From positions 41,528 through 73,527 of the forward strand of contig JADLAX010000027.1 of assembly GCA_020848035.1 (NCBI GenBank): 32,000 nt of DNA, written 5' to 3'. Of this stretch, positions 9,771 to 30,612 are shown piece by piece. Below the pieces are notes generated by a model that saw only the letters and a program-made list of their open reading frames with translations, did not search any database and had not been told where the DNA came from. The translations under genes and the position numbers were made by a program. Source of the stretch: Anaerolineae bacterium. Lineage in GTDB: Bacteria; Chloroflexota; Anaerolineae; Promineifilales; Promineifilaceae. The first letter of the stretch is position 1. The number at the start of each line of letters is the position of its first letter.

Positions 9771-9820
9771 GGAGATGGGAGGGTGGGAAGGCAAAAGTGA
9801 AAAGTAAAAAGTGAAAAGTG
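9771..9820. repeat. Phased heptamer array (7 units), purine-rich on the plus strand
   Basis: ggagatg ggagggt gggaagg caaaagt gaaaagt aaaaagt gaaaagt, located in the recN-upstream spacer. Confidence 0.8.
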
Positions 9821-9849
9821 CTTCTTTTTTGCTCCCGTCTCTGCTTCAA

Positions 9850-10713
9850 CTATTTCATGTAGGCATATAAAGCCCCGCCAGCCACAAAGAGGAAAATACC
9901 GGGGCCAAGAAAGAGAATCAAGCTGGACAATCCACCCACCAAAAGATACGGCAGAAGCCAGACAAGGGTTCCCAAAATCAGCATCGCCACCATCACCTGC
10001 GGCAGATAACGGCCACGCCGCCGCCCAATCGCCTGCTTACTCAGCTGGCCAATAAACCGCCCGGCAATGCCCCCCACAAACAGCATGATGAAGTAGGTAA
10101 AAAAGCCGCCACCCAGGGCAAAACGAGACACCAGGTAACCGGCAACCAGACTCAACACCAGGCCAATGGCTGGGGCGATGATGTAGTCGAGGGTCTTGGC
10201 GTTGAAAAAGAGGTCTTCTTTTTCGCGAATGCAGTCTGGGCAGCTGTAGCCCACGGGGGTTTTCACGGCACAGCTGCTGCAAATCGGTTTGCCGCAGTTA
10301 TAGCAGCGCAGCGAGGTTGGCCGGTTGGGATGGCGATAGCAAACCAGTTCGTAGCTGTCGGTGGTGGCAACGGCCGCAGGCACCGGCTCTACCACGTTCG
10401 GCGCGAAGGCTTCGGCTTCTTCCTCAACTTCAGGCTCTTCAGCCCAGGCGGGCACCGGCTCTCCACGCAGTTCGGCCAGGGCACGAACCGCCGGGGCATA
10501 TTCAGGATTCAGCGCCACCGCTTTTTCGTAGGCCGCTTCTTGCTCGGTGGCAACGGCCGTCACCCGGCCCAAACCATACCACGCCTCAGCCACATCAGGT
10601 GCTTCCTCAATCAGCTGCCGGTACAGCTGTTCAGCGGCGGCACGCTTGCCCGAATCTCTAACCTTATCGGCCTGTCGCAGCAGCGAGCGCAGCCGGGGAT
10701 CTTGTATCTCCAT
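9850..10713 (-). CDS. TPR repeat / B-box-type zinc-ribbon / 4-TM membrane protein (function unknown)
   Basis: 287 aa. It has an N-terminal TPR-like region (AEQLYRQLIEEAPDVAEAWYGLGRV...YEKAVALNPEYA), a Cys-rich module (CYRHPNRPTSLRCYNCGKPICSSCAVKTPVGYSCPDC), and then four hydrophobic helices. Confidence 0.72.
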   Translation of the reverse strand: MEIQDPRLRSLLRQADKVRDSGKRAAAEQLYRQLIEEAPDVAEAWYGLGRVTAVATEQEAAYEKAVALNPEYAPAVRALAELRGEPVPAWAEEPEVEEEAEAFAPNVVEPVPAAVATTDSYELVCYRHPNRPTSLRCYNCGKPICSSCAVKTPVGYSCPDCIREKEDLFFNAKTLDYIIAPAIGLVLSLVAGYLVSRFALGGGFFTYFIMLFVGGIAGRFIGQLSKQAIGRRRGRYLPQVMVAMLILGTLVWLLPYLLVGGLSSLILFLGPGIFLFVAGGALYAYMK

Positions 10714-10762
10714 GAAAATTTATCCAAATTTGTAGAGACGTTGCCATGCAACGTCTCTACTA

Positions 10763-11593
10763 TTATCGTGAGTGACCTAAGCGGCCCATGAGCCGCCGGT
10801 AAAAATAGCCCGAACTTTCCACGCGGGCAAATTTGCAGCTGTTTTCCGACTTGGTCACCAGCACCACATCCTCATCCTCCAGCAAAATACCGTCGGTGCC
10901 GTCGGGCGTCAGGTAAGCGTGGTGATCCATATGCACCGTGATCGCAATTTCAGCCTGCTCGTGAAAAATAATCGCCCGATCAAAGGTGAGATGGGGAGCA
11001 ACAGGCACCACCACAAAGTTGGGCAGCTGGGGCGGCAAGAGCGGCCCGCCAGCGGCCATCGAATACGCGGTGGAGCCAGTGGGCGTGGCCACGATCAGGG
11101 CATCGGCGGTGTAGTTGGTGACGTGATCGCCATCCACATGCAGCTGAAAACGCACCACGCGGGCCTGACGGCCGCGTCCCACCACCACGTCGTTAAGGAC
11201 AGAGAAGGTATGCAAGATACGGCCGTTGCGCCGAATCCGCGCCGCCAGCATCAACCGGTTTTCCGTCCAAAAATCACCTTCCAACAACCGGGTCAGCTTC
11301 TCGGGCCAGTCATCAGGCTGGGCCTCGCTTAAAAACCCCACCCGCCCCAGGTTGATGCCAAAAATGGGCACATCTTCCACACAGGCGTAGCGCGCGGCGC
11401 GCAGCAGCGAACCATCACCGCCCAGCACAACCAGAAAGTCGCTACCGTGTACCAGTTGCCCCATGCGTGCCTCGTCGTAGGAGGAGCCAATCCAGGCGGT
11501 AACGCCGCGTTGGGTCAGCCAGGTCTCAATTTCCACAGCCAGCGGCTGCGACTCGGCCACCTTGGGGTGATGGAGAATGCCAATTCGTGTCAT
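10763..11593 (-). CDS. nadK: NAD(+) kinase
   Basis: 276 aa. GGDGSLL motif (FLVVLGGDGSLLRAAR), NDVVV, and TPTGSTAYSMAAGGP, the canonical NAD kinase motifs. Confidence 0.93.
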   Translation of the reverse strand: MTRIGILHHPKVAESQPLAVEIETWLTQRGVTAWIGSSYDEARMGQLVHGSDFLVVLGGDGSLLRAARYACVEDVPIFGINLGRVGFLSEAQPDDWPEKLTRLLEGDFWTENRLMLAARIRRNGRILHTFSVLNDVVVGRGRQARVVRFQLHVDGDHVTNYTADALIVATPTGSTAYSMAAGGPLLPPQLPNFVVVPVAPHLTFDRAIIFHEQAEIAITVHMDHHAYLTPDGTDGILLEDEDVVLVTKSENSCKFARVESSGYFYRRLMGRLGHSR

Positions 11594-11598
11594 AGATG

Positions 11599-11630
11599 GG
11601 ACACTGATTTACACTGATTTACACTGATTT
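11599..11630. repeat. GG + three perfect tandem decamers ACACTGATTT; left arm of an inverted bracket around the GxxExxY gene
   Basis: ggacactgatttacactgatttacactgattt. The reverse complement of 12051-12089 reads ggacactgattgacgctgataaacactgatatttgattt. The first 11 nt are identical and overall identity is about 27/32. Confidence 0.8.
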
Positions 11631-11642
11631 GGGGATGCATTT

Positions 11643-12038
11643 TCAACCTTTTAGGTTTGGTTTTCTCGCATTATCGAATATTTTGCGTTTCTTGGTAGCT
11701 GACGGCCCGAAGTTTAACAGTAGTCCTACTTCAAATGGCGTTGCCTTTAGATAATTTAGCAACTGCGCTTCATGTATCGGCAGCAAGCTCGCCACGGCCT
11801 TAAGCTCCACAATAATTTTGTCCTCAATTAACAAATCGGCAAAATACTCTCCTACAACTTCTCCACGATAATAAACCTGAATTGGTGCTTGCTGCTGCGC
11901 CTTTAGGCCTCTCGCCCGTAACTCTATTGCCATTGAGTTTTCGTAAACTCGTTCAAGAAAACCGTAACCCAGGCTGTTATAAACAGCGTAAAAAGCATCA
12001 ACGATTTGCTGCGTTACGTCCTGGTGTTTGTATTGCAT
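11643..12038 (-). CDS. GxxExxY family protein (PD-(D/E)XK nuclease-fold superfamily)
   Basis: 131 aa. It has the eponymous motif GFLERVY (LGYGFLERVYENSMAIEL) plus ADLLIEDKIIVELKA, a D...E-x-K-like core. GC is about 43% in the stretch I counted. Confidence 0.85.
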   Translation of the reverse strand: MQYKHQDVTQQIVDAFYAVYNSLGYGFLERVYENSMAIELRARGLKAQQQAPIQVYYRGEVVGEYFADLLIEDKIIVELKAVASLLPIHEAQLLNYLKATPFEVGLLLNFGPSATKKRKIFDNARKPNLKG

Positions 12039-12050
12039 ATAACACTCTGC

Positions 12051-12089
12051 AAATCAAATATCAGTGTTTATCAGCGTCAATCAGTGTCC
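12051..12089. repeat. Degenerate inverted copy of the ACACTGATTT decamer array (right arm)
   Basis: aaatcaaatatcagtgtttatcagcgtcaatcagtgtcc. It abuts and overlaps the hisS stop codon by 1 nt. Confidence 0.75.
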
Positions 12090-13354
12090 TATTTCTTCAA
12101 ATACGCAAGCACGTCGGTGAGTTTGACCAGGGTTTGCTCGCCGCCGTCTAACGGCCGTACCATCACCGCCCCCTGCTCCAGTTCCGCTTCACCCACGATG
12201 AGCACCGTCTGGATGTCGTGTTTGTTGGCTTCGCGCATCTGGCTTTTCATGCTGCGCTTATCGCGCGAGAAGGCCAGCCGGGCACCAATGCCCGCCGCCC
12301 GCAGTTGGAAGGTAAGCTGAACGGCCGCTTCCTTCGTAGCCCCACCAAAATGGGCCACCAAAACGGTCGGCTGCGCCGGTGCGAGCGGCGCGATGCCTGC
12401 TTCCTGCATGCTCAACACAATGCGCTCGATGCCGCTGCCAAAACCCACACCCGGCGTCGAGGGTCCGCCAATATCTTCCGCCAACCCATCGTACCGACCG
12501 CCGCCGCAAACGGCCGCTTGCGCCCCAATGCCCTCGGCCCACACTTCAAACACCGTCTTGGTGTAATAATCAATGCCGCGCACCAGGCGGAAATTGATGC
12601 TGTAACTCTGATCCAGCGCGTCCAGCAGCCCCCGCAGGTCGGTAAAATGGGCTTCACAGTCGTCACACAAGGAATCAATAATGTGCGGCGCATCGGCCAG
12701 CAGGACCTCCATGCCTGGCTCTTTGCTATCCAGCACCCGCAGCGGATTGCGCTGGATGCGCTCTTTGTCGATGTCAGCCAGCTTGTCCAGGTGCTGGGCC
12801 AGATATTCGGTGAGCTTTTGCACGTAAGCCGGTTTACACACCGGGCAGCCGGTGCTGTTGAGCTGGAAGGTCAGCCCCTGGAACCCCAGCGAACGGTACA
12901 GATTCATCGCCAGCATCATCACTTCCACGTCGGCGGCGGGATCGACTTCGCCCAAAATTTCGCAGTTGAACTGGCTGTGCTGGCGGTAACGCCCGGCCTG
13001 CTGCCGTTCGCGGCGGAAGGCCGGGCCAATGGTGTAGAGCTTCACTGGCTGCGGCCAGCTGCTCATGCCGTTCTGGATGTAGGCGCGCATAAATCCGGCC
13101 GTAAATTCCGGCCGCATCGTTAGCGTTACCCCCTCGGACTCTTCCAGGGTGTACATCTCTTTTTGCACAAAAAAGTCGGAACCTTCCCCCACACCGCGCT
13201 GGTACAGCTCGGTGTATTCCAGGATGGGTAAGTCGATGCGCTGGAAACCGTAGCGGTGGGCCAATTCGGTCGCCTTTTCGGTAATCAGGTCCCAATAGCG
13301 GCGTTCTTCCGGCAGGACATCCTGCATGCCCTTGGCGCGTTGTATTGCTGTCAA
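12089..13354 (-). CDS. hisS: Histidine--tRNA ligase
   Basis: Class II aaRS HisS motifs are present (RGMQDVLPEE, FRRERQQAGRYRQHSQF, GGGRYDGL). The ORF track start is a TTG at 13432 with no SD. The in-frame TTG at 13354 is preceded by GGGAGG 5 nt upstream and gives the normal HisS N-terminus (TAIQRAKGMQDVLP). Confidence 0.93.
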   Translation of the reverse strand: MTAIQRAKGMQDVLPEERRYWDLITEKATELAHRYGFQRIDLPILEYTELYQRGVGEGSDFFVQKEMYTLEESEGVTLTMRPEFTAGFMRAYIQNGMSSWPQPVKLYTIGPAFRRERQQAGRYRQHSQFNCEILGEVDPAADVEVMMLAMNLYRSLGFQGLTFQLNSTGCPVCKPAYVQKLTEYLAQHLDKLADIDKERIQRNPLRVLDSKEPGMEVLLADAPHIIDSLCDDCEAHFTDLRGLLDALDQSYSINFRLVRGIDYYTKTVFEVWAEGIGAQAAVCGGGRYDGLAEDIGGPSTPGVGFGSGIERIVLSMQEAGIAPLAPAQPTVLVAHFGGATKEAAVQLTFQLRAAGIGARLAFSRDKRSMKSQMREANKHDIQTVLIVGEAELEQGAVMVRPLDGGEQTLVKLTDVLAYLKK

Positions 13355-13506
13355 ACTTGCCTCCCAAGTTCTTAAATGCAGAGGACGCAGGATGTGCAGG
13401 TGTGACTGCCTGTAGGCTGGGTCTTCTGGCAATAGTTGTGTAAAGATTGGGGTATATTATAGCCAGATCAGGGGGATTTTGTAGCGTGGGATGGGAAACG
13501 GCCGTA

Positions 13507-13893
13507 TCACCCCACCTGGGTTGCCAACCACCACGTATTGCCGGTCGGGTCCTTCACCCCACCGCGCCGGTCAGGATCACCCTTCTGCATGGGCTCCTGC
13601 ACGGATTCGCCGCCAGCCGCCAGCGCCTTCTGGTACGTCGCATCCACATCGGGCACGTAAACATGCAGCCAGACAGGAAAAGCGGGATATCCTTCACCCC
13701 CATCGGCCAGCATGACAATCGTGTCGTCAATTTGCACCTCGCCGTGCATGAGGGTGCCGTCAGGGTTATCAAAACGACGTGTCACTTTGGCGTCGAATGT
13801 GGCCACCAAGAAATCGATGAGCTTCTGTGCGCCATCGACCATGATGTAGGCCGAAACGGACGCATAGCCTTCCGGTTTATAAAATTTTGTCAT
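13507..13893 (-). CDS. VOC (glyoxalase/bleomycin-resistance/dioxygenase) family protein
   Basis: 128 aa. The typical small VOC/PhnB-like pattern is present (ASVSAYIMVDGAQKLIDFLVATF...HGEVQIDDTIVMLAD...RRGGVKDPTGNTWWLA). Confidence 0.82.
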   Translation of the reverse strand: MTKFYKPEGYASVSAYIMVDGAQKLIDFLVATFDAKVTRRFDNPDGTLMHGEVQIDDTIVMLADGGEGYPAFPVWLHVYVPDVDATYQKALAAGGESVQEPMQKGDPDRRGGVKDPTGNTWWLATQVG

Positions 13894-13902
13894 AACTACC
13901 TC

Positions 13903-14193
13903 TCAATTGATAACGGTGAAGTAAGCACCAGGTGGCATATCGGCCAGCAGCGTTTTGATTTCCGCAATTTCTTCGGCGGTGATGTTTTTTACGGAAGCTT
14001 GATGCGCTTCAAGGCTGTCCCACACCTCAACAATCATAAACCGCGTGGGATCAGATTGGTTTTGGTAAACCTGGCATGCCTGCCCCCCGTCAGCGACTTC
14101 AATCGCCGGAACAATCACACGCTCGATGAAGGATCGGAGGGCATCTTCTTTGCCCGATTGGGCCACCATCTCGCCAATTCTGGCAACAGTCAT
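13903..14193 (-). CDS. Antibiotic-biosynthesis-monooxygenase (ABM) domain protein
   Basis: The ORF track gives 13903-14277. The ATG at 14193 has AGGAG 7 nt upstream and removes the overlap with the upstream gene. The ~96-aa ferredoxin-like ABM pattern is present (QACQVYQNQSDPTRFMIVEVWDSLEAHQAS). Confidence 0.72.
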   Translation of the reverse strand: MTVARIGEMVAQSGKEDALRSFIERVIVPAIEVADGGQACQVYQNQSDPTRFMIVEVWDSLEAHQASVKNITAEEIAEIKTLLADMPPGAYFTVIN

Positions 14194-14206
14194 CCTGTCT
14201 CTCCTT

Positions 14207-14743
14207 TTAGCCCAGACGCTGGGTGCAAGCGGAGGCCACCCCACAGCGGGCACAACGATTCCAGTCGTTATGGTCACGATCTAACTCAGGTTCATACATG
14301 TCTTCGCGCATCTCGGTGAGCAAATCGAGCAAATCTTCGCGCAGGCCGTCGGTGTAATCGACAGCGAAGGCGCGGTCTTTGTACTGGATGATGCCATGCG
14401 ACGGCCGTATCCCATATTCCCGCTCCACCAGCCAGCAGTACGCCGCCAGCTGGTAGATATGGCTCTCATACGGCTCGGTCGGGGCACGCGTGGCTTTTAT
14501 TTCCACCGGCACAATCGAACCATTGGCCTCTTCAACCAGGTAATCGGGTTTGCCCACCAGGCGCAAGTGGGGGTCGTAAAACGGCTCGGTGTTGGTAACC
14601 CAGGCACTGCCGGTGTCGCTGTATAGGATACGGCCGTCGGGCAGCCCAGCCTGCTCCGCCAAGACCCCGCTGCGCCACCACAGAAACAGCGCCACAGCCA
14701 GCAGCAAAAAGCCAAATCCCAGTGCGTAACCACCCCAAATCAT
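14207..14743 (-). CDS. Cas4-like PD-(D/E)XK nuclease, catalytic C-terminal part, with an N-terminal TM helix
   Basis: 178 aa. N-terminal TM helix (MIWGGYALGFGFLLLAVALFLWW), then the RecB/Cas4 motifs: D (GKPDYL), E-x-K (VPVEIKA), QxxxY (YQLAAY), and a C-terminal CxxCx5C (CARCGVASAC) Fe-S ligand triad. Confidence 0.75.
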   Translation of the reverse strand: MIWGGYALGFGFLLLAVALFLWWRSGVLAEQAGLPDGRILYSDTGSAWVTNTEPFYDPHLRLVGKPDYLVEEANGSIVPVEIKATRAPTEPYESHIYQLAAYCWLVEREYGIRPSHGIIQYKDRAFAVDYTDGLREDLLDLLTEMREDMYEPELDRDHNDWNRCARCGVASACTQRLG

Positions 14744-14749
14744 TGCGGT

Positions 14750-14989
14750 CTACCCACCTACGAATGAATAAGCCATCATGGCCACTACCACAAAAATCAA
14801 CACGTACGCCGCCCGCCGCAGCCAGACAGACTGCTGTACCAGGCTGCCATGCTGCCGATGATGCTGCGTGCCGCGAGCCAGCTCGCGCACATTTTCCGAG
14901 GCGATGCCCCGGCTGCGCTTAAGCCACCAACTGCGCCGACAGTACAAATAGTCACCAATTTCGCTTGCGCGGATCCAATTATCGCTCAT
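14750..14989 (-). CDS. Cas4-like nuclease, N-terminal part (first Fe-S cysteine helix) with a C-terminal TM helix
   Basis: 79 aa. IRASEIGDYLYCRRSWWL matches the Cas4 N-terminal Cys motif. It ends in a TM helix (AAYVLIFVVVAMMAYSFVGG). It is in the same frame as 14207-14743, separated only by TAG plus 2 codons. Confidence 0.6.
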   Translation of the reverse strand: MSDNWIRASEIGDYLYCRRSWWLKRSRGIASENVRELARGTQHHRQHGSLVQQSVWLRRAAYVLIFVVVAMMAYSFVGG

Positions 14990-14997
14990 ATGTTCTA

Positions 14998-15025
14998 ATT
15001 CTAGTCAATTCCGCCGCCCTGTCAA
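14998..15025 (-). promoter_or_regulatory. Near-consensus promoter giving a (near-)leaderless transcript for the Cas4-like operon
   Basis: The minus strand reads TTGACA (15025-15020), a 16-nt spacer, then TAGAAT (15003-14998). Only 8 nt separate the -10 box from the ATG at 14989, and there is no SD. Confidence 0.5.
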
Positions 15026-15178
15026 CCAGCTAAAACGCGACAGCGCAGAGGATTCATGGATTCATTTATTTTGTAGACCAGCGTGGATTTCACGTGCGCC
15101 AAAAGGGCAGCCCAAAGAGCTTTACGGCGGAATATTTACCATCTGAGAGGGCATTGCGAGAGGGCACCAGTCGCAGGA

Positions 15179-16135
15179 TTACGGCCGTATCAACACCTTC
15201 ACCACCCCTGGCTGAGCCGCGCGGACAAAAGCGGCCGTTGCCTCCGCCAGCGAGTATTCAGCAGTGATGAGCGACGCCGTGTCCAGGGCATTTCCGGCCA
15301 GCAGGCGCAGCGCCGGGGCAAATGGGCCGCAGCGCGACCCCGTAACGCTGATTTCCCCCACCACAATCTTGGTCAGATCAACCTGGCTGCCCCCGGCAAA
15401 GGTACTTTTGAGCACCAGGTTACCCAACGGCCGTACCAAACGCAGCGCCTCCGCCAAACCCGCCTCATTGCCCGTCACCTCAACCACAAAGTCGAACCAG
15501 TTGTCGGCGTAGTTGGTGGTAAGGCCGGTAGACAGTCCCCAGCTGGCAGGCAAGGCCAGCGAATCGGGACGGCGGCCCAGCAGGGTAACGTCTTCACCGG
15601 CCAGGTGCAGCACCTGGGCTACCAGCAAACCCAGGCGCCCCGGACCAATGACGGCCGTTTTAGCCGACGGCCGTATGACTAGCTGCTCGCGAATGCGCAG
15701 CGCTGCGGCCAGCGGTTCGGTAAAAATGGCCCGTTCGTCTGGCACATCATCGGGCACGCAGTGCAAATTGCGCACCGGCACCACCACGTACTCGGCAAAC
15801 ACCCCATCCTGGTTATGAATGCCCAGCGAACGCCGGTTGGGGCAATGCTCTGGGCCACTTTTGTGGCACGTTTCACACGTCTGGCAGCCACTATTGATGC
15901 TGGCCACCACACGCTGGCCCAGCCAGCCAGAATCGGCCGCTTGTTCAACCACACCAACAAATTCATGCCCCAATACGCCGGAAAAATCCGGCACGTACCC
16001 TTTAACAATTTCCAGGTCGGTGGCACAAATGCCCGCCAAAGTAACGCGCACCAGGACTTCATCCGCCTGGGGGATGGGCTCAGGGTAGTCTCGCTGCAAA
16101 ACGAGCTGACCCATACGACAAACAAGCGCTAACAT
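15179..16135 (-). CDS. Zinc-dependent alcohol dehydrogenase / MDR superfamily oxidoreductase
   Basis: 318 aa. Catalytic Zn motif (AGICATDLEIVKGY...GHEFVGVV), a structural Zn Cys cluster (CQTCETCHKSGPEHC), and a Rossmann motif (AVIGPGRLGLL). Confidence 0.88.
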   Translation of the reverse strand: MLALVCRMGQLVLQRDYPEPIPQADEVLVRVTLAGICATDLEIVKGYVPDFSGVLGHEFVGVVEQAADSGWLGQRVVASINSGCQTCETCHKSGPEHCPNRRSLGIHNQDGVFAEYVVVPVRNLHCVPDDVPDERAIFTEPLAAALRIREQLVIRPSAKTAVIGPGRLGLLVAQVLHLAGEDVTLLGRRPDSLALPASWGLSTGLTTNYADNWFDFVVEVTGNEAGLAEALRLVRPLGNLVLKSTFAGGSQVDLTKIVVGEISVTGSRCGPFAPALRLLAGNALDTASLITAEYSLAEATAAFVRAAQPGVVKVLIRP

Positions 16136-16152
16136 ATTTATTGGCTCCCGGG

Positions 16153-17577: not shown

Positions 17578-17580
17578 AAT

Positions 17581-23218: not shown

Positions 23219-23275
23219 TGCACGCTCCTGTCATGTGAGGAGAACAGTTTTCGAAGTTTTTCATGCACAGATTTC

Positions 23276-23292
23276 GCAGATTACACAGATTT
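23276..23292. repeat. Second copy of the 17-mer GCAGATTACACAGATTT
   Basis: Identical to 7882-7898. It lies 58-74 nt upstream of the zinc-ribbon gene start (23218) in a spacer rich in AGATTT/AAATCT words. Confidence 0.8.
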
Positions 23293-23412
23293 TCTGCTTA
23301 AATCTGCCAAATCCTTTAAATCTTGGATTGTTTGTAGCCAATCAAAAAGATTGTAGCGCAGGGGCGGGCTTGATTCAATCGGGTTTTTGTGGGGAAATGT
23401 GGCCTGCCAAAC

Positions 23413-23784
23413 CTATTCATCTAATTTCACGTGCCAGGTGATGCCGCTGTCAGCCAGCGTGGCCACGGCAAAGTCCATCTGGCCTGAGAAGACGTACAGC
23501 TCGGCGGCAAACATTCGGTCACCAACAAACTCCCGAAAAACGGCCGAAGATTCGCACAACGCCGCGTAACAGTCACGCAGTCTGGACAAGACCGAGAGCG
23601 CTTCTTGCCTGGTTGGCCGGGAAAAGGCATCCAGCCGGTGATAAAACGTCACCCTGGCCTCGGTCATGGTGGCCTCAACATCAATCCCGTCAACTGTACC
23701 AAGCGTGACCATCACCTGAGTCGATTGAAGCAGCTTGATGATTTCCTCACCAGAAAACCTTTTATCTTTCATAAGCTGACTCAA
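23413..23784 (-). CDS. Hypothetical protein
   Basis: 123-aa ORF 7 nt downstream of the hydrolase gene. It has a TTG start, with an alternative ATG at 23772. No motif recognised. Confidence 0.55.
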   Translation of the reverse strand: MSQLMKDKRFSGEEIIKLLQSTQVMVTLGTVDGIDVEATMTEARVTFYHRLDAFSRPTRQEALSVLSRLRDCYAALCESSAVFREFVGDRMFAAELYVFSGQMDFAVATLADSGITWHVKLDE

Positions 23785-23791
23785 AGCTGAC

Positions 23792-24847
23792 TTACGGCAG
23801 GCGTTCTAAAAAGTCCCCCAAGATGTGAACAAAATCGCCCGGCTTTTCAAAGTGGAAGCCGTGGCCCGAATCGACCTTCACAAAAACGACATCCGGGATA
23901 AGCGACCGGGCCAGTTCGGCATCTTTATCGTCCATCGCGGCCATCAAAATGCCTGCCTCGTCATAGCGCCAGTTGGTGTGGATGAGCACAGCGGGCACGC
24001 GGATGCGGCTCAGCGCGTCGGCGTGGTCAAATCCATCGTTCCACGAGCCGTCATAAAACGACGCGCCAAACCGGGGGTCGTAGGTGTGCAGCCCGCGCCA
24101 CAGCTCATTCATGACGGGCGGCATGTAGAACACTTTAACGGGTTCCTGGGGATATTTGGCCCGGTAGGTAAGCACGGTTTGGGTGAGCCGGGGCTGAAGC
24201 TCATTAAACAGGGTATAAAATTTGCCGTGCCGCACCTGGTAACTCACAAAATCTGTTTCGCCGCTGTTGACGAAGTTGTGGGCGGTGCTGGCCAGATCGA
24301 CGTAGTTCCAGGTTTTTTCGGCGCGTGGCAGCGTGGTGGTGAACAGCGGCGGGTCTTCCAGAATCACACCGCGCACGGTGTCCGGCGCGTTGGCGGCCAG
24401 CCACACCGCCAACAGCCCGCCAGACGAATGGCCAGACACCACGGCCGTTTCCCCAATCACCTCGCGGATAAACTGAGCCAGGTCACGCCCCAGCGCCGCG
24501 TTGGTATATTTTTCAGGAACACGGGCCGAACGGCCGTGTCCATAACAATCCACCGCAAAAACGTGGTACTGCTCCGCCAGGTCGGGCAGCACCCGGGCGT
24601 AGTTTTGCCAGTCTACCGCCTGCCCGTGAATCAGCAGCAGCGGCGGTCCGTTGTCCGGCCCTTCGGCATAGTTGATTTCACTGCCAGCGATGATGACCTG
24701 TTTTTCGACAAACCCGGCCCGCCACACGGCCGTCATGTTCCGCTTAAAGTAGGTCATGGTATGGAACACAAAAGCGCCCAGGCCCAAGGCGGCCAGCACC
24801 ACAACACCTGCCAAAATCCAAACGGCCGTACGCATCATCTTGTTCAC
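23792..24847 (-). CDS. Membrane-anchored alpha/beta hydrolase
   Basis: 351 aa. N-terminal TM helix, HG oxyanion motif (LLLIHGQAVDW), nucleophile elbow GHSSGG, and a late His (SGHGFHFE). Confidence 0.87.
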   Translation of the reverse strand: MNKMMRTAVWILAGVVVLAALGLGAFVFHTMTYFKRNMTAVWRAGFVEKQVIIAGSEINYAEGPDNGPPLLLIHGQAVDWQNYARVLPDLAEQYHVFAVDCYGHGRSARVPEKYTNAALGRDLAQFIREVIGETAVVSGHSSGGLLAVWLAANAPDTVRGVILEDPPLFTTTLPRAEKTWNYVDLASTAHNFVNSGETDFVSYQVRHGKFYTLFNELQPRLTQTVLTYRAKYPQEPVKVFYMPPVMNELWRGLHTYDPRFGASFYDGSWNDGFDHADALSRIRVPAVLIHTNWRYDEAGILMAAMDDKDAELARSLIPDVVFVKVDSGHGFHFEKPGDFVHILGDFLERLP

Positions 24848-24871
24848 TGCGGCTCCCTTCCTTTTAGGGTG

Positions 24872-25108
24872 TTACTCAACAGGCGGCTCAGCGCTGCCTA
24901 TCCCTTGCAAAACGCTGTCGGTAAATTCGGCAAACAACTCCTGACGCACAATGGCAATGCCGCGCTGCACATCGGCCAGCAGCAGCAAGGTATCGCCGGG
25001 CTTAATATTAAACATCTCACGGGCCGCCTTGGGGATAACAATCTGGCCCTTTTCCCCCACACGCACCGTGCTGGCAAATTTTCCTTCAGGAATTTCCATC
25101 ATCTTCAC
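24872..25108 (-). CDS. AbrB/MazE/SpoVT family DNA-binding protein
   Basis: 78 aa. The SpoVT-AbrB looped-hinge-helix pattern is present (VRVGEKGQIVIPKAAREMFNIKPGDTLLLL). GTG start at 25108, with alternative ATGs 6-9 nt downstream. Confidence 0.85.
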   Translation of the reverse strand: MKMMEIPEGKFASTVRVGEKGQIVIPKAAREMFNIKPGDTLLLLADVQRGIAIVRQELFAEFTDSVLQGIGSAEPPVE

Positions 25109-25109
25109 C

Positions 25110-25143
25110 GTATAACTGGTTGTATTTGTATAACTAGTATAAC
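25110..25143. promoter_or_regulatory. Three direct GTATAAC repeats immediately upstream of the AbrB-like gene (candidate operator)
   Basis: GTATAAC occurs at 25110, 25128 and 25137 (spacings of 18 and 9 nt), directly abutting the start codon region. Confidence 0.4.
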
Positions 25144-25434
25144 TTTTTCTGCCCTGGAGGACAAACTCAGTCTGGCGCCTAAAGACGTGGAACCGTTAAC
25201 GCCCCTGCTAGCGAGACAAGGCCCCATGAGTCTTTAAAAAATTACTTGGGTAATGTCAAGTCTCGCAAGGAGCATATGGCAAGGGCTTTGCCGAGCGGAA
25301 GATTCTCTGGTTATTCAGCGGGCGGGATGCTTCGGGGGATACTTCGGCGGCCTCAGCACAGGCTCTCAGCATGACAACGTTGTTACCCGAGTTAATGTTT
25401 AATCTTCAAAAGGGACTACTGTAAAAGCCAAATT

Positions 25435-25473
25435 GGGCAGCCCAACTGGGCAGGCCAACCGGGCAGCCCGAAC
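25435..25473. repeat. Three tandem 13-mers GGGCAGSCCRAMY
   Basis: gggcagcccaact gggcaggccaacc gggcagcccgaac, located in the 430-bp non-coding gap. Confidence 0.75.
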
Positions 25474-25538
25474 GGACTACCACAACCAGTTGTTTGGTTT
25501 TCGTCACTGGCGGCTGGGCGCTGTCTGCAAGGTGCGGC

Positions 25539-25967
25539 CTACCAGGCCGCCAACTCTTTCTGGGCGATGATTTTGTCCACCTTGATCCGCACCAGCAGCT
25601 CGCCGGGCACGCTGTTGCGCTGGCCAAACGCTTCGGCCTGGTCTGCACCCATGTAGCGTGCACCAATGCGGGTGGCCCACTTCCGGCTCTCGGCCGGGTC
25701 GTCGGTAATTTCCACAGTGCCTTCCACCAGCACAAAGGCATACGGGGCTATTTCTTCATCAACGGTGAGGGCGATACGGCCGTCCCGCACCAAATTTTTC
25801 CCCTTCACCGATTCATGCCAGGTATTGAAGATCAAATCCTCCCCATCCAGCACAAACCAGATAGGGGCCACATGAGGACGGCCGTCGGCCCGTACCGTCG
25901 CCAACTTGCCCGTGCGCGTGCCCGTGGCCAGAAATTCATACGCTTCCGCCTTGCTCATCTTTTTCAT
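25539..25967 (-). CDS. Pyridoxamine 5'-phosphate oxidase (PPOX) family, probable F420-dependent class protein
   Basis: 142 aa. Typical split-barrel PPOX N-terminus (EAYEFLATGTRTGKLATVRADGRPHVAPIWFVLDGEDLIF). GGGAGG SD upstream. Confidence 0.82.
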   Translation of the reverse strand: MKKMSKAEAYEFLATGTRTGKLATVRADGRPHVAPIWFVLDGEDLIFNTWHESVKGKNLVRDGRIALTVDEEIAPYAFVLVEGTVEITDDPAESRKWATRIGARYMGADQAEAFGQRNSVPGELLVRIKVDKIIAQKELAAW

Positions 25968-26124
25968 CGTTTACCTCCCGGTTAAGTTTTTAGGTAGACA
26001 TCTGGTAGAATAGCATTCTTACGTCCCACGCTGAAGAAGGAATGGGATTACGGCCGTTCTTAGTACCGCTTAATCATTTTAGGCCAAAATTGTGGGAGAA
26101 TAGAGCGTAAGTGCATAATCGAGT

Positions 26125-26247
26125 GATGGAAGAAGGAAGAAGGAAGAAGAAAAAGTGAAAAGTAAAAAGTAGACGTTCACCTACCACTTTTGACTTATCA
26201 CTTTTCACTAATCACTTCACTCAATCCTCTCTCACTTTTAACTCACT
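26125..26247. repeat. Inverted pair of phased heptamer arrays (7 purine-rich units, then 10 pyrimidine-rich units)
   Basis: gatggaa gaaggaa gaaggaa gaagaaa aagtgaa aagtaaa aagtaga (26125-26173), then cacctac cactttt gacttat cactttt cactaat cacttca ctcaatc ctctctc actttta actcact (26178-26247). It ends 16 nt before the UPF0182 ATG. Confidence 0.82.
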
Positions 26248-26263
26248 CCGAAGGACGGGAAAA

Positions 26264-29170
26264 ATGAGTCGTGACAACTGGGACATCCCAGAAGTGTTTC
26301 GCCGGGCTATGGAAGAGGCCGGCTGGGAAGGCAATAAAGGTGAGGGCAATGAAGGGGGCGAAGGCGGCGGTCAGCGCCCGCCCATTCCCAATCGCCCAAC
26401 ACAGCCGGGCCGCAGCAACCGCAGTTGGTGGATCGTTGGCATTCTCTTTTTGTTGTTCATCAGCCTCAACTGGATAGTGGGGGTTTATACCGATTGGCTC
26501 TGGTTCAACGAGCTAAATTACCAGAGCGTCTGGCTAAAGCGCTGGAGCTACCAGCTGGGCAGCTTTATCGCCTTTTTTCTAGTTGCCTTCCTTATTTTCT
26601 GGGGCAACTGGCGGCTGGCACGCCAGCGGGCTATCAAGGCCACCCCGCCGTTTTACCCGCGTTTTCTGCAAATCCGCGGCATCCCCTGGCTCATGAGTGG
26701 CGCGGCCCTTTTGTTGGCCTTTGGCTTTGCCAGCTCTATTGCCGTGCGCTGGGACGAATTTCTGCTTTTTCTCAACCGCGTACCTTTTGGCACGGCCGAT
26801 CCCATCTTTGGCCGCGATATCAGCTTCTATCTGTTTGAGCTGCCCGTCTACGAGGCGCTGCAGCAGTGGGCCAGCTCCTTGCTGCTGCTGACGCTGCTGG
26901 GCGTGCTGGCCATTTACGCTGTGAACAACATCGTTGATATTCAGCGGGGCAAGTGGCGGCCGCAGGAATCGGTAATTTTGCGGCAGCATGTGGCCCTGCT
27001 GGCGGCACTGATTTTGCTGCTGTGGGCTGTAGGCTACCTGTTCCAGATTTTTAACCTCAACTATTCACCCCGTGGGGTGGTGTTTGGGGCCAGCTACACC
27101 GACATGAACGCGACGATCTATGCCCTGTATGCCCAAATGGCCTTCATGGGGCTGGCGGCGCTGGTGATGTTGTTTAATGTCTTTCGGCTGAGTTTACGGC
27201 CGTTGCTCCTCATTGGCGCTCTCTGGCTGGCGGCCACAGTGTTGCTGGGTGGCGTCTATCCCGCTATCTTACAGCGGTACGAAGTGGAACCCAATGAACT
27301 GGTGCGCGAGACACCCTACATCCAGTACAACATCGAATTTACCCGCCTGGGCTTTAACCTGGACAAGATTGAAGTACGCAACTTCAGCGAGGTTGATACC
27401 CTAAGCCAGGGTGACGTTACAACCAACAGCGCCGTGTTGTCGAACATTCGCTTGTGGGATTATCGGCCATTACAGCTTACCTTCACCCAATTGCAGGCGT
27501 TACGGCCGTATTACGTCTTTGGTGAAGTCGATATCGATCGCTACGAAATTGACGGTGAAATCCAGCAAGTCATGCTGGCCGCCCGCGAACTCGACAAAAG
27601 CAAGCTATCTTCCCTCTCCTGGGTCAACGAAAGGCTGGAATTCACCCACGGCTATGGCATCGTCATGAACCCCGTCGACCGCTTTACCACCGACGGCCAG
27701 CCCGAATTTTTCATCAAAAACCTGCCGCCAGAGAGTGAAATCCCGCTGCAAGTTACCCGCCCCGAAATCTACTACGGCGAATTCACCAATGACGAGGTGT
27801 TTGTTGGCAGCGCCCGCGAAGAGTTTAGCTACCCCAGCGGTAACGAAAACGTCTACTCCAGCTACGAAGGCAGCGGCGGTGTACCGCTCGACAACTTCCT
27901 CAAACGCATAGCCTTTGCCCTCCGCCTCGGCGACGCCAACGTCCTGCTCAGCGATGAAATCAACACCCAAACCCGGGTGCAAATCCACCGCCAGATTCAG
28001 GAACGGGTGCGGCTGCTGACCCCCTTCCTGGCCCTGGACAGCGATCCCTACGTGGTGCTCACGAATGATGGCAACCTCATCTGGGTGCAGGATGCCTTTA
28101 CCTACAGCAGGCGTTTCCCCTACGCGACACCCAACAGCATCCTGCCCAACAGCGATATTCCCGGCGAGCTTGCCAATATTAACTACGTGCGCAACGCCGT
28201 TAAAATCACCATTGATGCCTACAACGGAACCGTCAACTACTACGTTGTGGACGAACAAGACCCCATCATCCAATCATACAGCCGTGCCTTCCCTGGTCTC
28301 TTTAAGCCGTTCAGCGAAATGCCGGAAAATCTGCAAAACCATCTACGCTACCCGGAAGATTTGTTCACCATTCAGGCGCAGCAATACCTGCGCTACCACA
28401 TGACCGACGTCCGCGTTTTCTTCAACCAGGAAGACGTGTGGCAAATCCCGCAAGAGGTGTATGAAGGCAATCAGCAGCTAATGGAGCCGTACTATGTCAT
28501 CATGCCGCTGCCTGGGGAAACAGAAAGTGAATACTTACTTATCCAACCGTTTAACCCCACCGGCAAAGACAACATGATCGCCTGGATGGCCGCCCGCAAC
28601 GATCCCGCCAACTACGGCCAGTTGGTGATGTATGAACTGCCCAAGCAGGAGCTTGTTTTTGGCCCGATGCAAATCGAAAGCCGCATCAACCAGGATTCCT
28701 TCATCTCGCAGCAGTTTGCCCTCTGGGATCAGGGTGGCTCCAACGTGCTGCGCGGCAATCTGCTGGTGATTCCTCTGGGCAACAGCTTTTTGTACGTGGA
28801 ACCCATCTACCTGCAAGCCTCAACCAGCGCTCTGCCCGAACTCAAGCGGGTGATCGTGGCCACCGATACCCGGATCGCCATGGATTTGACGCTAGACCGG
28901 GCCTTAACGGCCCTGCTGGCCGCCGAGCCGGGCGAAATTACGCCTGAGCTTGAAGGGCTGGAAACGGCCGAAGATCCAGTACCCGAACCAACTACACCCA
29001 CCATCCCCACTGCCCCGCTTGATGCCTCCGTGGAAGAGCTGATCGCCTCGGCCAACGCCCACTTTGAAGCGGCTCAAGCAGCCCAGCAAAGCGGCGATTG
29101 GGCCACCTACGGCGCTGAATTGAAAGCTCTGGAAAGTGACCTGGCCCGGTTAATGGAACTGACGGAGTAG
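26264..29170 (+). CDS. UPF0182 family large membrane protein
   Basis: 968 aa. Gly/Glu/Pro-rich N-terminus, about 7 TM helices, then a large soluble region with UPF0182-typical stretches (YIQYNIEFTR, LWDYRPL, LRPYYVFGEVDIDRY, LIQPFNPTGKDNMIAWMAA). Confidence 0.88.
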   Translation: MSRDNWDIPEVFRRAMEEAGWEGNKGEGNEGGEGGGQRPPIPNRPTQPGRSNRSWWIVGILFLLFISLNWIVGVYTDWLWFNELNYQSVWLKRWSYQLGSFIAFFLVAFLIFWGNWRLARQRAIKATPPFYPRFLQIRGIPWLMSGAALLLAFGFASSIAVRWDEFLLFLNRVPFGTADPIFGRDISFYLFELPVYEALQQWASSLLLLTLLGVLAIYAVNNIVDIQRGKWRPQESVILRQHVALLAALILLLWAVGYLFQIFNLNYSPRGVVFGASYTDMNATIYALYAQMAFMGLAALVMLFNVFRLSLRPLLLIGALWLAATVLLGGVYPAILQRYEVEPNELVRETPYIQYNIEFTRLGFNLDKIEVRNFSEVDTLSQGDVTTNSAVLSNIRLWDYRPLQLTFTQLQALRPYYVFGEVDIDRYEIDGEIQQVMLAARELDKSKLSSLSWVNERLEFTHGYGIVMNPVDRFTTDGQPEFFIKNLPPESEIPLQVTRPEIYYGEFTNDEVFVGSAREEFSYPSGNENVYSSYEGSGGVPLDNFLKRIAFALRLGDANVLLSDEINTQTRVQIHRQIQERVRLLTPFLALDSDPYVVLTNDGNLIWVQDAFTYSRRFPYATPNSILPNSDIPGELANINYVRNAVKITIDAYNGTVNYYVVDEQDPIIQSYSRAFPGLFKPFSEMPENLQNHLRYPEDLFTIQAQQYLRYHMTDVRVFFNQEDVWQIPQEVYEGNQQLMEPYYVIMPLPGETESEYLLIQPFNPTGKDNMIAWMAARNDPANYGQLVMYELPKQELVFGPMQIESRINQDSFISQQFALWDQGGSNVLRGNLLVIPLGNSFLYVEPIYLQASTSALPELKRVIVATDTRIAMDLTLDRALTALLAAEPGEITPELEGLETAEDPVPEPTTPTIPTAPLDASVEELIASANAHFEAAQAAQQSGDWATYGAELKALESDLARLMELTE

Positions 29171-29239
29171 ATGAGGGATAAAGGATGAGAGATGAGGGAT
29201 GAGAGATGAGGGATGAGGGATGAAGTGGGAGGTGAGAGG
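29170..29239. repeat. Ten-unit phased heptamer array GATGAGR
   Basis: gatgagg gataaag gatgaga gatgagg gatgaga gatgagg gatgagg gatgaag tgggagg tgagagg. It starts at the last base of the UPF0182 stop codon. Confidence 0.85.
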
Positions 29240-29316
29240 GGGCTGTTTTGGCTTTCACTTCTCATTTTTCTGTCAAGTCCTAAAATAAGTTGACACAAAA
29301 TAGTGACTACTTCACA

Positions 29317-30132
29317 TCATTTATCAAAATGAATTTCAGCAGGTTTGGCATAGCCCAACGACAAATGTGGGCGGTCGTAGTTGTACAGCCAAACCGCTTC
29401 GGCCACAGCCTGTTGCGCGTGCGCCACATTGACAAACAGGTCATCAAGACCATACTCGTTCTTTAAAATGCCGTTCATACGTTCGGCCAAAGCGTTGTCG
29501 TAGCAGTTGCCTACCTCACCCATGCTGGGTAGCAAGCTGTGCTCTCTGAGGCAATCACGGTACGGCCAAGAAGTGTATTGCACGCCATGGTCGGAATGAT
29601 GGACCAACCCGGCCACCGGACAATGGGCCTGGTTGATAGCCAGCTGCAAAGCACGCAGGCAGCCTTCCGTGGCCAAAGAGGTAGAAATATCATAACCGAC
29701 AATAAAGCGCGAAAAGGCATCGGTCAGCAGAGCCAGATAGACAAAGCCCGTTTCCGTCGTGATGTAGGTGATGTCACCAACCCACGCTTGATAGGGAGCC
29801 TCCAACGTCAATTCCGCCAGACGATTGGGGCAACGCCAGGAGCCAGCTAAGGTGGTTCGCCGTTGATTCCGCTTGGGGACAATCAGTAACTCATGGGCGC
29901 GTAGCAGGTTAAAAAAAGCATCTCGACCACGGGTAATCTCCAGGTTTCCCCAGCAGGGCCGCAGTTCATGATACAGCTTGCGTCCTCCCATCTGGGGATG
30001 GAGCCGCCGTTTTTCTTTGACCAAGTCCAGGAGGATCTGGTTCTCAGCTTCCTGTTGCTGCTGTCGCTGTTTGGCTTGAAAGTAGGCTTGACGGCTGATG
30101 TCAAACCAGGTCACGGCGGCTTGAGTCGTCAC
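29317..30132 (-). CDS. IS3-family transposase OrfB (DDE/rve integrase domain)
   Basis: WVGDITYITTETGFVYLALLTDAFSRFIVGY (first D), HSDHGVQYTS (second D), NCYDNALAERMNGILKNE (E). The frame is -1 relative to orfA, so the natural product is probably an OrfAB fusion. Confidence 0.9.
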   Translation of the reverse strand: MTTQAAVTWFDISRQAYFQAKQRQQQQEAENQILLDLVKEKRRLHPQMGGRKLYHELRPCWGNLEITRGRDAFFNLLRAHELLIVPKRNQRRTTLAGSWRCPNRLAELTLEAPYQAWVGDITYITTETGFVYLALLTDAFSRFIVGYDISTSLATEGCLRALQLAINQAHCPVAGLVHHSDHGVQYTSWPYRDCLREHSLLPSMGEVGNCYDNALAERMNGILKNEYGLDDLFVNVAHAQQAVAEAVWLYNYDRPHLSLGYAKPAEIHFDK

Positions 30133-30155
30133 TTGGTCGGCTTGCCGGATATGGT

Positions 30156-30521
30156 CTATGATTTCTTGCCGAAATTTTTTTTAAGGTCTAGGCGCAACGC
30201 TTCACTGGCCACCGTGAGTGTCGCTTCCAACATGCGGTTATCCAGGGTACTTTGAGCCAGGGCTGATTCCAACTCGGCGACCCGTCGTTTGAGTGCTTTG
30301 AGCCCCTCCTGGTCTTCGGCTGTTTGGATGACTACCAGCTCGGCACGGTAACCAAAACGGCCGTATCGTTCGATCCATCGTTGCACGGTGAGATGCGACC
30401 CGATACCGTATTTGTCGCGCAAGCTGTAAATGCTGGCCCCGGCTTCATATTCACGCACAACTTGTTGCTTGAAGGCCAGGCTGTAACGTCTGACGGTTTC
30501 TTTTTTCATAAGGTTGCCCAT
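30156..30521 (-). CDS. IS3-family transposase OrfA (HTH)
   Basis: 121 aa. RRYSLAFKQQVVREYEAGASIYSLRDKYGIGSHLTVQRWIERY HTH region plus a leucine-zipper-like tail. The alternative start is the ATG at 30509. Confidence 0.88.
   Translation of the reverse strand: MGNLMKKETVRRYSLAFKQQVVREYEAGASIYSLRDKYGIGSHLTVQRWIERYGRFGYRAELVVIQTAEDQEGLKALKRRVAELESALAQSTLDNRMLEATLTVASEALRLDLKKNFGKKS
30175..30182 (-). other. A8 slippery run: candidate programmed -1 ribosomal frameshift site of the IS3 transposase
   Basis: The minus strand reads CTT AAA AAA AAT near the end of orfA. The orfB frame is exactly -1 relative to orfA (first-base coordinates are 2 mod 3 for orfA and 0 mod 3 for orfB). Confidence 0.7.
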
Positions 30522-30572
30522 CCTAAAGGGTAATTATATCTGTCAACTATATTTAGGACGGGTCAGGTCATT

Positions 30573-30612
30573 CACTTCTCACTTCTCACTTCTCACTTTT
30601 TACTTCTCACTG
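30573..30612. repeat. Phased heptamer array CACTTCT (about 5.5 units)
   Basis: cacttct cacttct cacttct cactttt tacttct cactg, directly after the IS3 right end and 7 nt before the DinB-family ATG. A remnant, tttcacttctcattttt, lies on the other side of the IS (29254-29270). Confidence 0.85.

Follow-up and report, generated by a model that had tools for sequence, protein, structure and literature searches.

The sequences termed short tandemly repeated repetitive (STRR), of which the original description is reportedly that of Mazel et al. in 1990, are found in cyanobacteria, classically in heterocyst-forming species, and have the canonical words CCCCAGT, TTGGTCA and CAACAGT. The repetitive extragenic palindromes (REP) and bacterial interspersed mosaic elements (BIME) of proteobacteria are imperfect palindromes that occur in many copies in intercistronic and 3' spacers and form stem-loops in mRNA, and the inverted pairs known as REPINs are spread by RAYT transposases, whose genes are flanked by REPs. 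Here we describe tandem heptamer arrays in a 32,000 nt stretch of DNA, hereafter the window, from an Anaerolineae bacterium of the Promineifilaceae (Chloroflexota; assembly GCA_020848035.1, contig JADLAX010000027.1, positions 41,528 to 73,527). The arrays are heptanucleotide simple sequence repeats (SSRs) of the STRR type, a new example rather than a new kind of element, and their distinguishing feature, judged from computed folding, is that in this lineage they are predominantly paired into hairpins that run from a stop codon to the next start codon.

Heptamers of the STRR type form hairpins between the cyanobacterial genes hupS and hupL, for which roles in transcript stability or translational coupling have been proposed (PMC2670836). 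The window arrays were called STRR-like in a preliminary description, and the label is apt, as they have a 7-nt unit, are tandem, intergenic and dispersed, belong to one of several word families in the genome, can form hairpins between co-transcribed genes, and co-occur with a highly iterated octamer palindrome. They differ from STRR in their host, a member of the Chloroflexota and not a (heterocystous) cyanobacterium, in their words (CACTTYT/RAAGTG, GATGAGG and GGAAGAA), and in the palindrome, which is ACGGCCGT and not the highly iterated palindrome HIP1, GCGATCGC. Tandem dimers of CCCCAGT, TTGGTCA and CAACAGT are absent from the window, as are tandems of TAACTGA and HIP1. In the same phylum, Chloroflexus aurantiacus carries 22 dispersed satellites derived from (GATAGRA)n (Subirana and Messeguer 2019, PMC6749651), which are likewise purine-rich heptamers at many dispersed sites and specific to a species or lineage. 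The class (Chloroflexia, compared with Anaerolineae/Promineifilaceae) and the word are different, and hairpins or inverted arms are not mentioned for (GATAGRA)n in that article, whereas inverted arms are the dominant form here. In Beggiatoaceae, Cyanobacteria and Bacteroidetes, repeats of TAACTGA closely precede start codons (MacGregor 2015, PMC4679880), and heptanucleotides are, according to Mrazek (2007) as summarized in that article, the commonest class of long SSR in most prokaryotic genomes, with polymerase slippage proposed as their origin. Like these, the window arrays are intergenic heptamer tandems of two to six or more copies that often end near a start codon, are phylogenetically scattered, and have slippage as their assumed generator, but the TAACTGA repeats are almost all direct (one inverted set in 170) and predicted to be unstructured, while the arrays described here are mostly paired. 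Our literature search found no paper combining STRR with Chloroflexi.

Tandem Repeats Finder (TRF) made the following calls of period 7 in the window:
9793–9820: AAAAGTG, 4 copies
26128–26149: GGAAGAA, 3.1 copies
26150–26171: AAAAAGT, 3.1 copies
26177–26217: TCACTTA, 5.9 copies, with 67% matches
29169–29238: AGATGAG, 10.3 copies
30572–30611: TCACTTC, 5.7 copies

The sequence set out in a 7-nt register agrees with these calls. A comparison of the window with itself at lags 4–12, with a threshold of 23 identical positions in 28, found three segments at period 7 and none at periods 4–6 or 8–12, and 200 block shuffles of the window gave no segment at any period from 4 to 12, so that the 7-nt periodicity is real. 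Exact phasing, which had been claimed for all of the arrays, holds for most of them but not for 9771–9792 (GGAGATG GGAGGGT GGGAAGG), which is purine-rich but contains no repeated word and drew no call from TRF, nor for 26177–26247, which is imperfect and has one 1-nt phase slip between 26213 and 26233. The purine fraction is 0.81–1.0 in one kind of array and 0.14–0.27 in the other, in agreement with the strand asymmetry first reported, and the word RAAGTG/CACTTY is indeed common to all the spacers that bear arrays. All period-7 arrays are non-coding, being outside every gene called in the window, and they lie at gene ends: TAG, with which the UPF0182 gene stops, extends to 29170, and the ATG of the DinB-family gene, at 30619, is separated by 6 nt from the end of an array at 30612. 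In unit size (within 5–11 nt), in exceeding chance length and in being mostly non-coding they agree with long SSRs generally. A coding explanation was ruled out, because the arrays are outside open reading frames (ORFs) and their 7-nt period is not divisible by 3. Assembly artefact was also ruled out, because orthologous arrays are present in independent assemblies, namely the sister strain L002, which comes from a different sequencing run (SRR28277414), and metagenome-assembled genomes (MAGs) at NCBI. Rfam gave no match anywhere in the window, either at gathering thresholds or at E <= 1, and no tRNA gene was found in it.

The strong strand asymmetry had also raised the idea that the homopurine-homopyrimidine tracts form triplex DNA (H-DNA) and act through DNA topology. 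One tract, a pure purine, mirror-like run of 28 nt at 26128–26155, does qualify, but it is only about 15 nt long in L002, and all the other arrays have a T in every unit (AAAAGTG, GATGAGG) that breaks the purine run each 7 nt. Word families with no purine bias (GTAATTG, CAGATTT and ACACTGATTT, see later) share the same architecture, and we regard a triplex function as very improbable.

Most of the arrays are the arms of quasi-palindromes, in which a purine-rich tandem arm (AAAAGTG, AGAAGTG, GATGAGG or GGAAGAA) is followed by a pyrimidine-rich one (CACTTTT or CACTTCT). The components of the two spacers that flank the UPF0182 gene are:
26125–26174, + strand: GGAAGAA three times, then three AAAAGTG-type units; purine arm in the UPF0182 leader (TRF, sequence, fold)
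26177–26247, + strand: about nine imperfect CACTTTT-type units; pyrimidine arm in the UPF0182 leader (TRF, sequence)
29170–29239, + strand: ten in-phase GATGAGG-type units; purine arm, beginning with the final base of the stop codon of UPF0182 (TRF, sequence)
29240–29254, + strand: ancestral hairpin loop, GGGCTGTTTTGGCTT (sequence comparison, fold)
29255–29261, + strand: TCACTTC, the first unit of the pyrimidine arm, the last 4 nt of which (CTTC) are the left copy of a target duplication
29262–30574, - strand: insertion sequence (IS) of the IS3 family, 1,313 bp (Pfam rve, rve_3 and HTH_Tnp_1)
30575–30612, + strand: the other CTTC copy, then CACTTCT/CACTTTT units; rest of the pyrimidine arm

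The preliminary description counted four array-bearing spacers, with a remnant at 29254–29270. The IS3-family element, which has orfA (30156–30521) and orfB (29317–30132) on the - strand, a run of eight A on that strand near 30174–30181 that is compatible with -1 frameshifting, imperfect terminal inverted repeats and a 4 bp target duplication (CTTC), sits inside the first unit of the pyrimidine arm. Excision of the element together with one CTTC gives CACTTCT CACTTCT CACTTCT CACTTTT TACTTCT CACTG in perfect 7-nt register. Since the register is restored, the remnant and the array at 30573–30612 are the two halves of one arm, and as a single array has been split in this way, the ancestral array-bearing spacers number three, not four. 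In L002, which lacks the element, the DinB-family gene comes immediately after UPF0182, and the 110-nt spacer is made up of a GATGAGG array and three TCACTTC units separated by a short loop.

The two arms together span the spacer, from the upstream stop codon to just before the downstream start codon; the pyrimidine arm at 26177–26247, for example, stops 16 nt short of the UPF0182 ATG (26264). Across 10 co-directional gene pairs, measured by hand on sequences and ORF lists, the position of the stop codon varies between 17 nt inside the 5' arm and 12 nt upstream of that arm, with 6–31 nt between the 3' arm and the start codon that follows it. In computed folds the heptamer spacers give long imperfect stems. 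The UPF0182-DinB spacer with the IS removed folds at -47.9 kcal/mol with 44 bp (z -4.05; none of 200 shuffles folded as well), and the leader at 26115–26255 at -32.9 kcal/mol (z -2.07). Corresponding values for spacers in relatives are -30.4 (z -4.7) in L003, -31.7 (z -7.5) in L004, -29.4 (z -5.6) in L098 and -32.3 kcal/mol (z -9.8) in L070. The polarity of the arms is fixed: the purine arm is 5' in about 10 of 10 adjacent pairs (from the window, L003, L070 and loci found with a pattern scan). The scan, for (YACTTYT)x3, covered one genome per species, and among the matches listed all six of its pairs have the purine arm 5' and none has the opposite order; three of the six are from other phyla.

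By eye, the stems are rich in A-U and G.U pairs and are followed by CAAAC-ATG or similar, with no U-run. As they are neither G+C-rich nor followed by a U-tract, they are not canonical intrinsic terminators, and a terminator scan of 25900–26300 gave no site. A promoter scan of the UPF0182 leader found nothing. Upstream of the arms, at 25997–26110, are two extended -10-like boxes, TCTGGTAGAAT and TGTGGGAGAAT, with about 60 nt of conserved sequence between them that includes ACGGCCGTTCT and TTAATCATTTTAGGCCAAAA. This segment, which has no Rfam match, is kept in five genomes with differing arrays (counterparts at L002:9752–9865, L003:9668–9790, L004:9755–9880 and L005:9789–9900), and is a candidate tandem promoter or leader element.

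Comparison with close relatives revealed differences in whole units. L002, in which the UPF0182 gene is 98.2% identical to that of the window at the DNA level (about 95–96% for the region), has a shorter purine arm, the difference being a 7-nt unit, GGAGGTG, and differs by exactly 14 nt in the pyrimidine arm of the UPF0182-DinB spacer. A single 7-nt unit separates the recN leader of the window from that of L126. The length polymorphism that the preliminary description proposed to look for is thus present. These steps were scored at the UPF0182-DinB spacer and the recN leader, the upstream UPF0182 spacer being too diverged, and such steps of 7 or 14 nt are the signature of replication slippage. 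Between close genomes, only steps in multiples of 7 nt were seen and no case of presence or absence of an array. Arrays of this kind serve as length markers at the strain level, read in 7-nt steps, and they are a likely cause of assembly breaks in MAGs.

Over larger distances the sequence turns over, and orthologous spacers of other genera retain the tandem-armed architecture. In L003 the UPF0182-DinB spacer has an AAAAGTG/ATAAGTG arm opposite an ACTTTTC/ACTTTTT arm, and in L004 it holds a decamer pair, (AAACACAGAT)x4 and ATCCGTGTTTATCTGTGT. A tandem-armed hairpin is present in all four genomes that have a DinB-family gene after UPF0182; L005 has a transposase after UPF0182 and a spacer with only a G+C-rich inverted repeat, for which z is insignificant. 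Structure rather than sequence is what is kept at these positions. TRF also found adjacent inverted heptamer pairs at sites that are not orthologous, in three Promineifilaceae (L098, L116 and L121) and in an Anaerolinea MAG (L070). With three ancestral spacers in 32 kb and these MAG sites taken together, the arrays are dispersed and typical of the lineage.

The word itself is not confined to this lineage. The (YACTTYT)x3 scan returned at least 120 stretches, and the matches listed come from Bacteroidota, Cyanobacteria, Acidobacteriota, Gemmatimonadota, Planctomycetota, Chloroflexota and other groups, many phyla in all. Together with the published heptamers of Beggiatoaceae, Bacteroidetes and Chloroflexus, this does not uphold the earlier view that such arrays are unusual outside cyanobacteria. 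Most of the stretches among the matches listed are one-directional arrays. Classified by the dominant ORFs on either side, again among the matches listed, 18 and 19 are co-directional (in the two orientations), 15 divergent and 10 convergent. A first count, 44 versus 10, had indicated a preference for a stop codon followed by a purine array, but it was dropped as an artefact because TGA occurs in each of the three frames of purine arrays. One locus from a Gemmatimonadota MAG (L035:3340–4070) has CACTTCT nine times abutting the ATG of a membrane-protein gene and the complementary AGAAGTG six times just past its stop codon, that is, the same word as the window, in another phylum, in the opposite arm order around a gene; with arrays at both ends of the gene, the 5' and 3' ends of its mRNA could pair.

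We consider the chances about even that the transcribed spacers act as intercistronic or leader stem-loops, serving mRNA stability or processing or translational coupling, and that slippage resizes them. The arms do grow and shrink in 7-nt steps, and since a stem of tandem words still pairs after a slip, such stems tolerate and accumulate these events. Once transcribed, the arrays would fold into long A-U- and G.U-rich intercistronic or leader stem-loops, the base of which would place the stop codon of one gene beside the start codon of the next. The stem-loop would then stabilise or process the mRNA or, because stop and start are juxtaposed, couple the translation of the two cistrons, roles that parallel those proposed for the STRR hairpins between hupS and hupL. 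In the reconstructed UPF0182-DinB stem, GAUGAGG pairs with CACUUCU through G.U only, and the predicted energy of -47.9 kcal/mol for the sense RNA falls to -29.8 for the antisense and to -27.5 when G.U pairs are disallowed, so that by this model the stem needs G.U pairs; it is the only one that is clearly sense-specific. As arms of hairpins between stop and start codons, rather than loose microsatellites, the arrays would have a concrete and testable role, in the insulation of cistrons or in translational coupling.

Support for a role at the RNA level is mixed, and several observations count against it. Among 19 hairpins compared for sense and antisense energy, 6 are better as sense, 11 as antisense and 2 are equal, and because no general sense-strand advantage is seen, there may be no selection at the RNA level. 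Some z-scores are weak (-1.3 for the L002 3' spacer and -0.4 for L005), the recN-leader array is largely unpaired in the fold, and the one-directional CACTTYT arrays of other phyla have no orientation preference relative to flanking genes. We infer transcription, folding in vivo and an effect on expression from position and computed folding. The fixed order of purine arm then pyrimidine arm is not predicted by slippage alone, and could instead point to common descent by mobility.

These same observations bear on a neutral explanation, in which the arrays are by-products at the DNA level that form and change size by polymerase slippage in dispensable spacers, with inverted arms created and held similar by intramolecular template switching (quasi-palindrome correction), and serve no function in RNA or the cell. 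This is possible, though we doubt it. It would account for the rapid turnover of words and copy numbers between close relatives, for folding energies that lack a sense-strand bias, for one-directional arrays without orientation bias in other phyla, and for the many different words within one genome; the rank of heptanucleotides as the commonest class of long SSR, ascribed to polymerase slippage (Mrazek 2007, to the extent that it is summarized in PMC4679880), also fits. It does not sit easily with a hairpin in four of four UPF0182-DinB spacers, with arms that closely adjoin stop and start codons, with a stem (UPF0182-DinB) that pairs only as sense RNA by way of G.U, or with the common polarity of about 10 of 10 pairs, since random template switching should yield both orders. 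A further point against neutrality is that the recN-leader array has kept its place in four genomes with a DNA identity of about 85%.

The leader of the RecN-like gene (8003–9757) contains:
9793–9820, - strand: CACTTTT four times on the transcribed strand (AAAAGTG on the + strand) (TRF, sequence)
9771–9792, - strand: C-rich segment CCTTCCCACCCTCCCATCTCC, the 3' half of an outer stem enclosing the array (fold, comparison)

The array stops 35 nt short of the ATG, and its orthologs have three units in L126 and about five in L127 and L128. CCTTCCCACCCTCCCATCTCC is predicted to pair with GAGACGGGAG at about 9826–9843, so that this leader would be a variant of the common architecture, with a single CU-rich array in the loop of a short stem. 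Its sense RNA is the less structured strand and leaves the CU-rich tract exposed. The outer stem has 10 predicted pairs, of which two have compensatory changes among the four genomes; covariation was dropped as support for it, two pairs in four sequences being too weak.

Exposed or not, the repeats could be binding sites for an RNA-binding regulator (S1, cold-shock or CsrA-like) or for a DNA-binding regulator or nucleoid protein. Three start codons in the window have a pyrimidine array (CACTTYT) that ends 6, 16 or 35 nt upstream of them, no obvious Shine-Dalgarno (SD) sequence precedes the recN or DinB-family genes, and the word is kept across several genera. Protein binding has been proposed for heptamers just upstream of start codons (MacGregor 2015, PMC4679880), and deletion of the heptamer repeats from Nostoc recO and recF constructs altered reporter activity (bioRxiv 10.1101/2022.06.06.494920). 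The repeats in the window are, however, mostly paired with their complement rather than exposed, their copy number is not conserved, and across phyla the word has no orientation preference. At least six word families of four periods coexist, so that many binders would be needed, and we think this explanation quite unlikely. Mimicry of SD or anti-SD sequences (CACTTCT resembles CACCTCC, and GGAGGTG occurs at 29228–29234) was noted but set aside, as the other families do not fit and the GGAGGTG unit is missing from L002.

The preliminary description listed other word families in the window as unrelated, but they are further cases of the inverted tandem-arm architecture, with periods of 8, 9 and 10 nt:
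7300–7329: GTAATTG-type array, one arm of an 8-nt-period family (TRF, sequence)
7974–8006: CAATTAC-type array, partner arm of 7300–7329 (TRF, comparison)
7883–7940, - strand: hairpin of CAGATT/AATCT words (TRF; fold -12.8 kcal/mol, z -2.65)
23266–23320, - strand: hairpin of CACAGATTT three times and AAATCTG, with 9-nt-period arms (TRF; -21.4 kcal/mol, z -4.26)
11601–11630: decamer arm, ACACTGATTT three times, beside a GxxExxY gene (TRF, sequence)
12059–12088: inverted decamer arm, three AATCAGTGT-type units, on the other side of the GxxExxY gene (TRF, sequence)

The 9-nt-period hairpin is conserved in L002 at 6314–6340. The arms at 7300–7329 and 7974–8006 are complementary at 27 of 29 positions and span a lipoprotein gene (7328–7849), which has a signal peptide ending in LSAC and no Pfam match. 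The counterpart of this locus (7300–8006) in L127 is at 14873–15470; L128 (14901–14960) lacks the lipoprotein gene and has the GTAATTG and CAATTAC arms adjacent, as a simple hairpin between convergent genes, and in L126 (14841–16106) the arms enclose 1.2 kb of apparently non-coding DNA. The hairpin loop is a variable insertion site.

The decamer arms belong to a cassette (11594–12088) that contains a gene (11643–12038) for a GxxExxY nuclease (PDDEXK_3; PF13366, TIGR04256). It lies between hisS and nadK and is flanked by three GACACTGATT-type decamers and three inverted ones. In L126 and L127 hisS and nadK overlap (TAAATG) or abut (TAGATG), and in L128 their spacer is 20 nt, 13 nt of which (GGAC-TCAGT-GTCC) resemble a vestige of the decamer arms, a comparison that shows the gene with its arms to be an insertion between hisS and nadK. 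Among relatives of the GxxExxY gene (L129–L208), 76 metagenomic ones had enough flanking sequence to be counted, and 61 of these have at least two inverted decamers on each side, typically three, in the same polarity; two have the opposite polarity. The decamer word varies among loci, and the two arms match in 33 of 62 compared with 5.8 expected by permutation. Decamer hairpins that lack an ORF occur, for example, at L004:12884–12960 and in L183 and L172, some of them beside copies of the gene. A gene flanked by inverted arms, as RAYT genes are by REPs, suggests by analogy a system resembling REPIN/RAYT but with a PD-(D/E)XK nuclease, and the co-varying arms may explain the multi-copy state of the gene family. 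No description of GxxExxY genes with inverted decamer flanks was found in a literature search. The likeness to REP and REPIN has limits, in that the arms here are tandem words of 7–10 nt and not a unique sequence of 20–40 nt, and no mobility was seen for the heptamer family.

The decamer cassette brings in the remaining explanation, that the arrays are mobile elements resembling REPINs or miniature inverted-repeat transposable elements (MITEs), that is, non-autonomous palindromes spread by a protein encoded elsewhere, with the heptamers as one family. In its favor, the same word and arm polarity recur at non-orthologous loci in different genera, one orthologous spacer holds the heptamer or the decamer family depending on the genome, and the decamer family offers direct evidence in the cassette between hisS and nadK, the shared flanks of its relatives, their co-varying arms and the hairpins that lack an ORF. 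For the heptamer hairpins themselves, however, we saw no filled or empty site, no defined end and no duplication of a target site, the only such duplication found (CTTC) being that of the IS3-family element. Close strains differ solely by 7-nt steps in copy number, with no presence/absence case of the kind expected of a MITE, orthologous heptamer arrays are vertically inherited across genera, and no Y1_Tnp match, as expected of a Y1 (RAYT) transposase, was found among the genes of the 32-kb window. Mobility of the heptamers therefore seems unlikely to us. A broader form of the idea, which we also think improbable, would make all the tandem-armed palindromes (words of 7, 8, 9 and 10 nt) copy-and-spread families analogous to REPINs. 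The autonomous form of the decamer family would be the GxxExxY gene flanked by GGGAC(A/G)C(N)GAT...ATC(N)G(C/T)GTCCC, three per side, its non-autonomous forms would be the decamer hairpins that lack an ORF, and the heptamer hairpins would be a kindred element with the partner gene missing or acting in trans. If this were true, a nuclease-driven mobile system, and not plain slippage, would have left behind the STRR-like arrays in general.

The co-occurrence of the arrays with a HIP-like palindrome, as first noted, is borne out by counts. ACGGCCGT is present in 60 copies per 32 kb (for example at 1008, 26050 and 30700), compared with 0.7–2.8 expected under Markov models of order 1–3, and the HIP1 word GCGATCGC occurs once in the window. 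ACGGCCGT was also counted in L002–L005, L057, L098, L116 and L121; relatives have 22–43 copies per 23 kb, other Promineifilaceae loci 9–17 per 8 kb, and two other Anaerolineae loci none. Like HIP1 it is a highly iterated palindrome, though of a different word, and is found across the lineage. STRR-type arrays together with a HIP-like palindrome are thereby extended to the Promineifilaceae, filamentous Chloroflexota of activated sludge, and because both occur there, this seemingly cyanobacterial pairing of repeat types is not restricted to cyanobacteria.

The host of the window is a Promineifilaceae/'Ardenticatenaceae' bacterium of the Chloroflexota and not a cyanobacterium, as its gene content had already suggested. 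The best named matches of UPF0182 and HisRS are to Ardenticatenaceae, Candidatus Promineifilaceae, Candidatus Leptofilum and Anaerolineae MAGs (78–100% identity), lineages of filamentous Chloroflexota. Pfam matches depict an ordinary bacterial neighborhood, with dnaK-grpE-hrcA, a sugar transferase, a CtpA-like protease, an SDR fusion, a RecN-like ATPase, a TPR/B-box protein, NAD kinase, HisRS, a Cas4-like nuclease, secDF, an acyltransferase, a tocopherol-cyclase-like protein, an alpha/beta hydrolase, the UPF0182 membrane protein, the IS3-family element and the DinB-family protein. There is also a match to 'NAD-GH' (PF10712) at 89–814 (+ strand), on the strand opposite to dnaK, the N-terminus of which reads on the - strand near 964; we take this match to be the antisense-ORF artefact tied to that family, and not a real gene.

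Other kinds of repeat are present nearby. The spacer between nadK and the B-box gene (10714–10762) holds a non-tandem hairpin, TAGAGACGTTGC-ATG-GCAACGTCTCTA, that is conserved in four genomes (counterparts at L126:12070–12135, L127:12098–12163 and L128:12115–12180), three of which have it partly duplicated. Downstream of the DinB-family gene, at 31116–31181, G+C-rich palindromic units, GTCATTCCCGCGTAGGCGGGAATC and an inverted copy, GATACCCGCCTACGCGGGTATGAC, form a REP-like element of yet another family, and the L002 sequence at this position is unrelated. Lastly, a tandem array with a 13-nt unit, AGCCCAACTGGGC in 3.4 copies, lies at 25426–25469 within a long non-coding region (24848–25538), in place of which L002 has genes for PadR and DUF2812 proteins.

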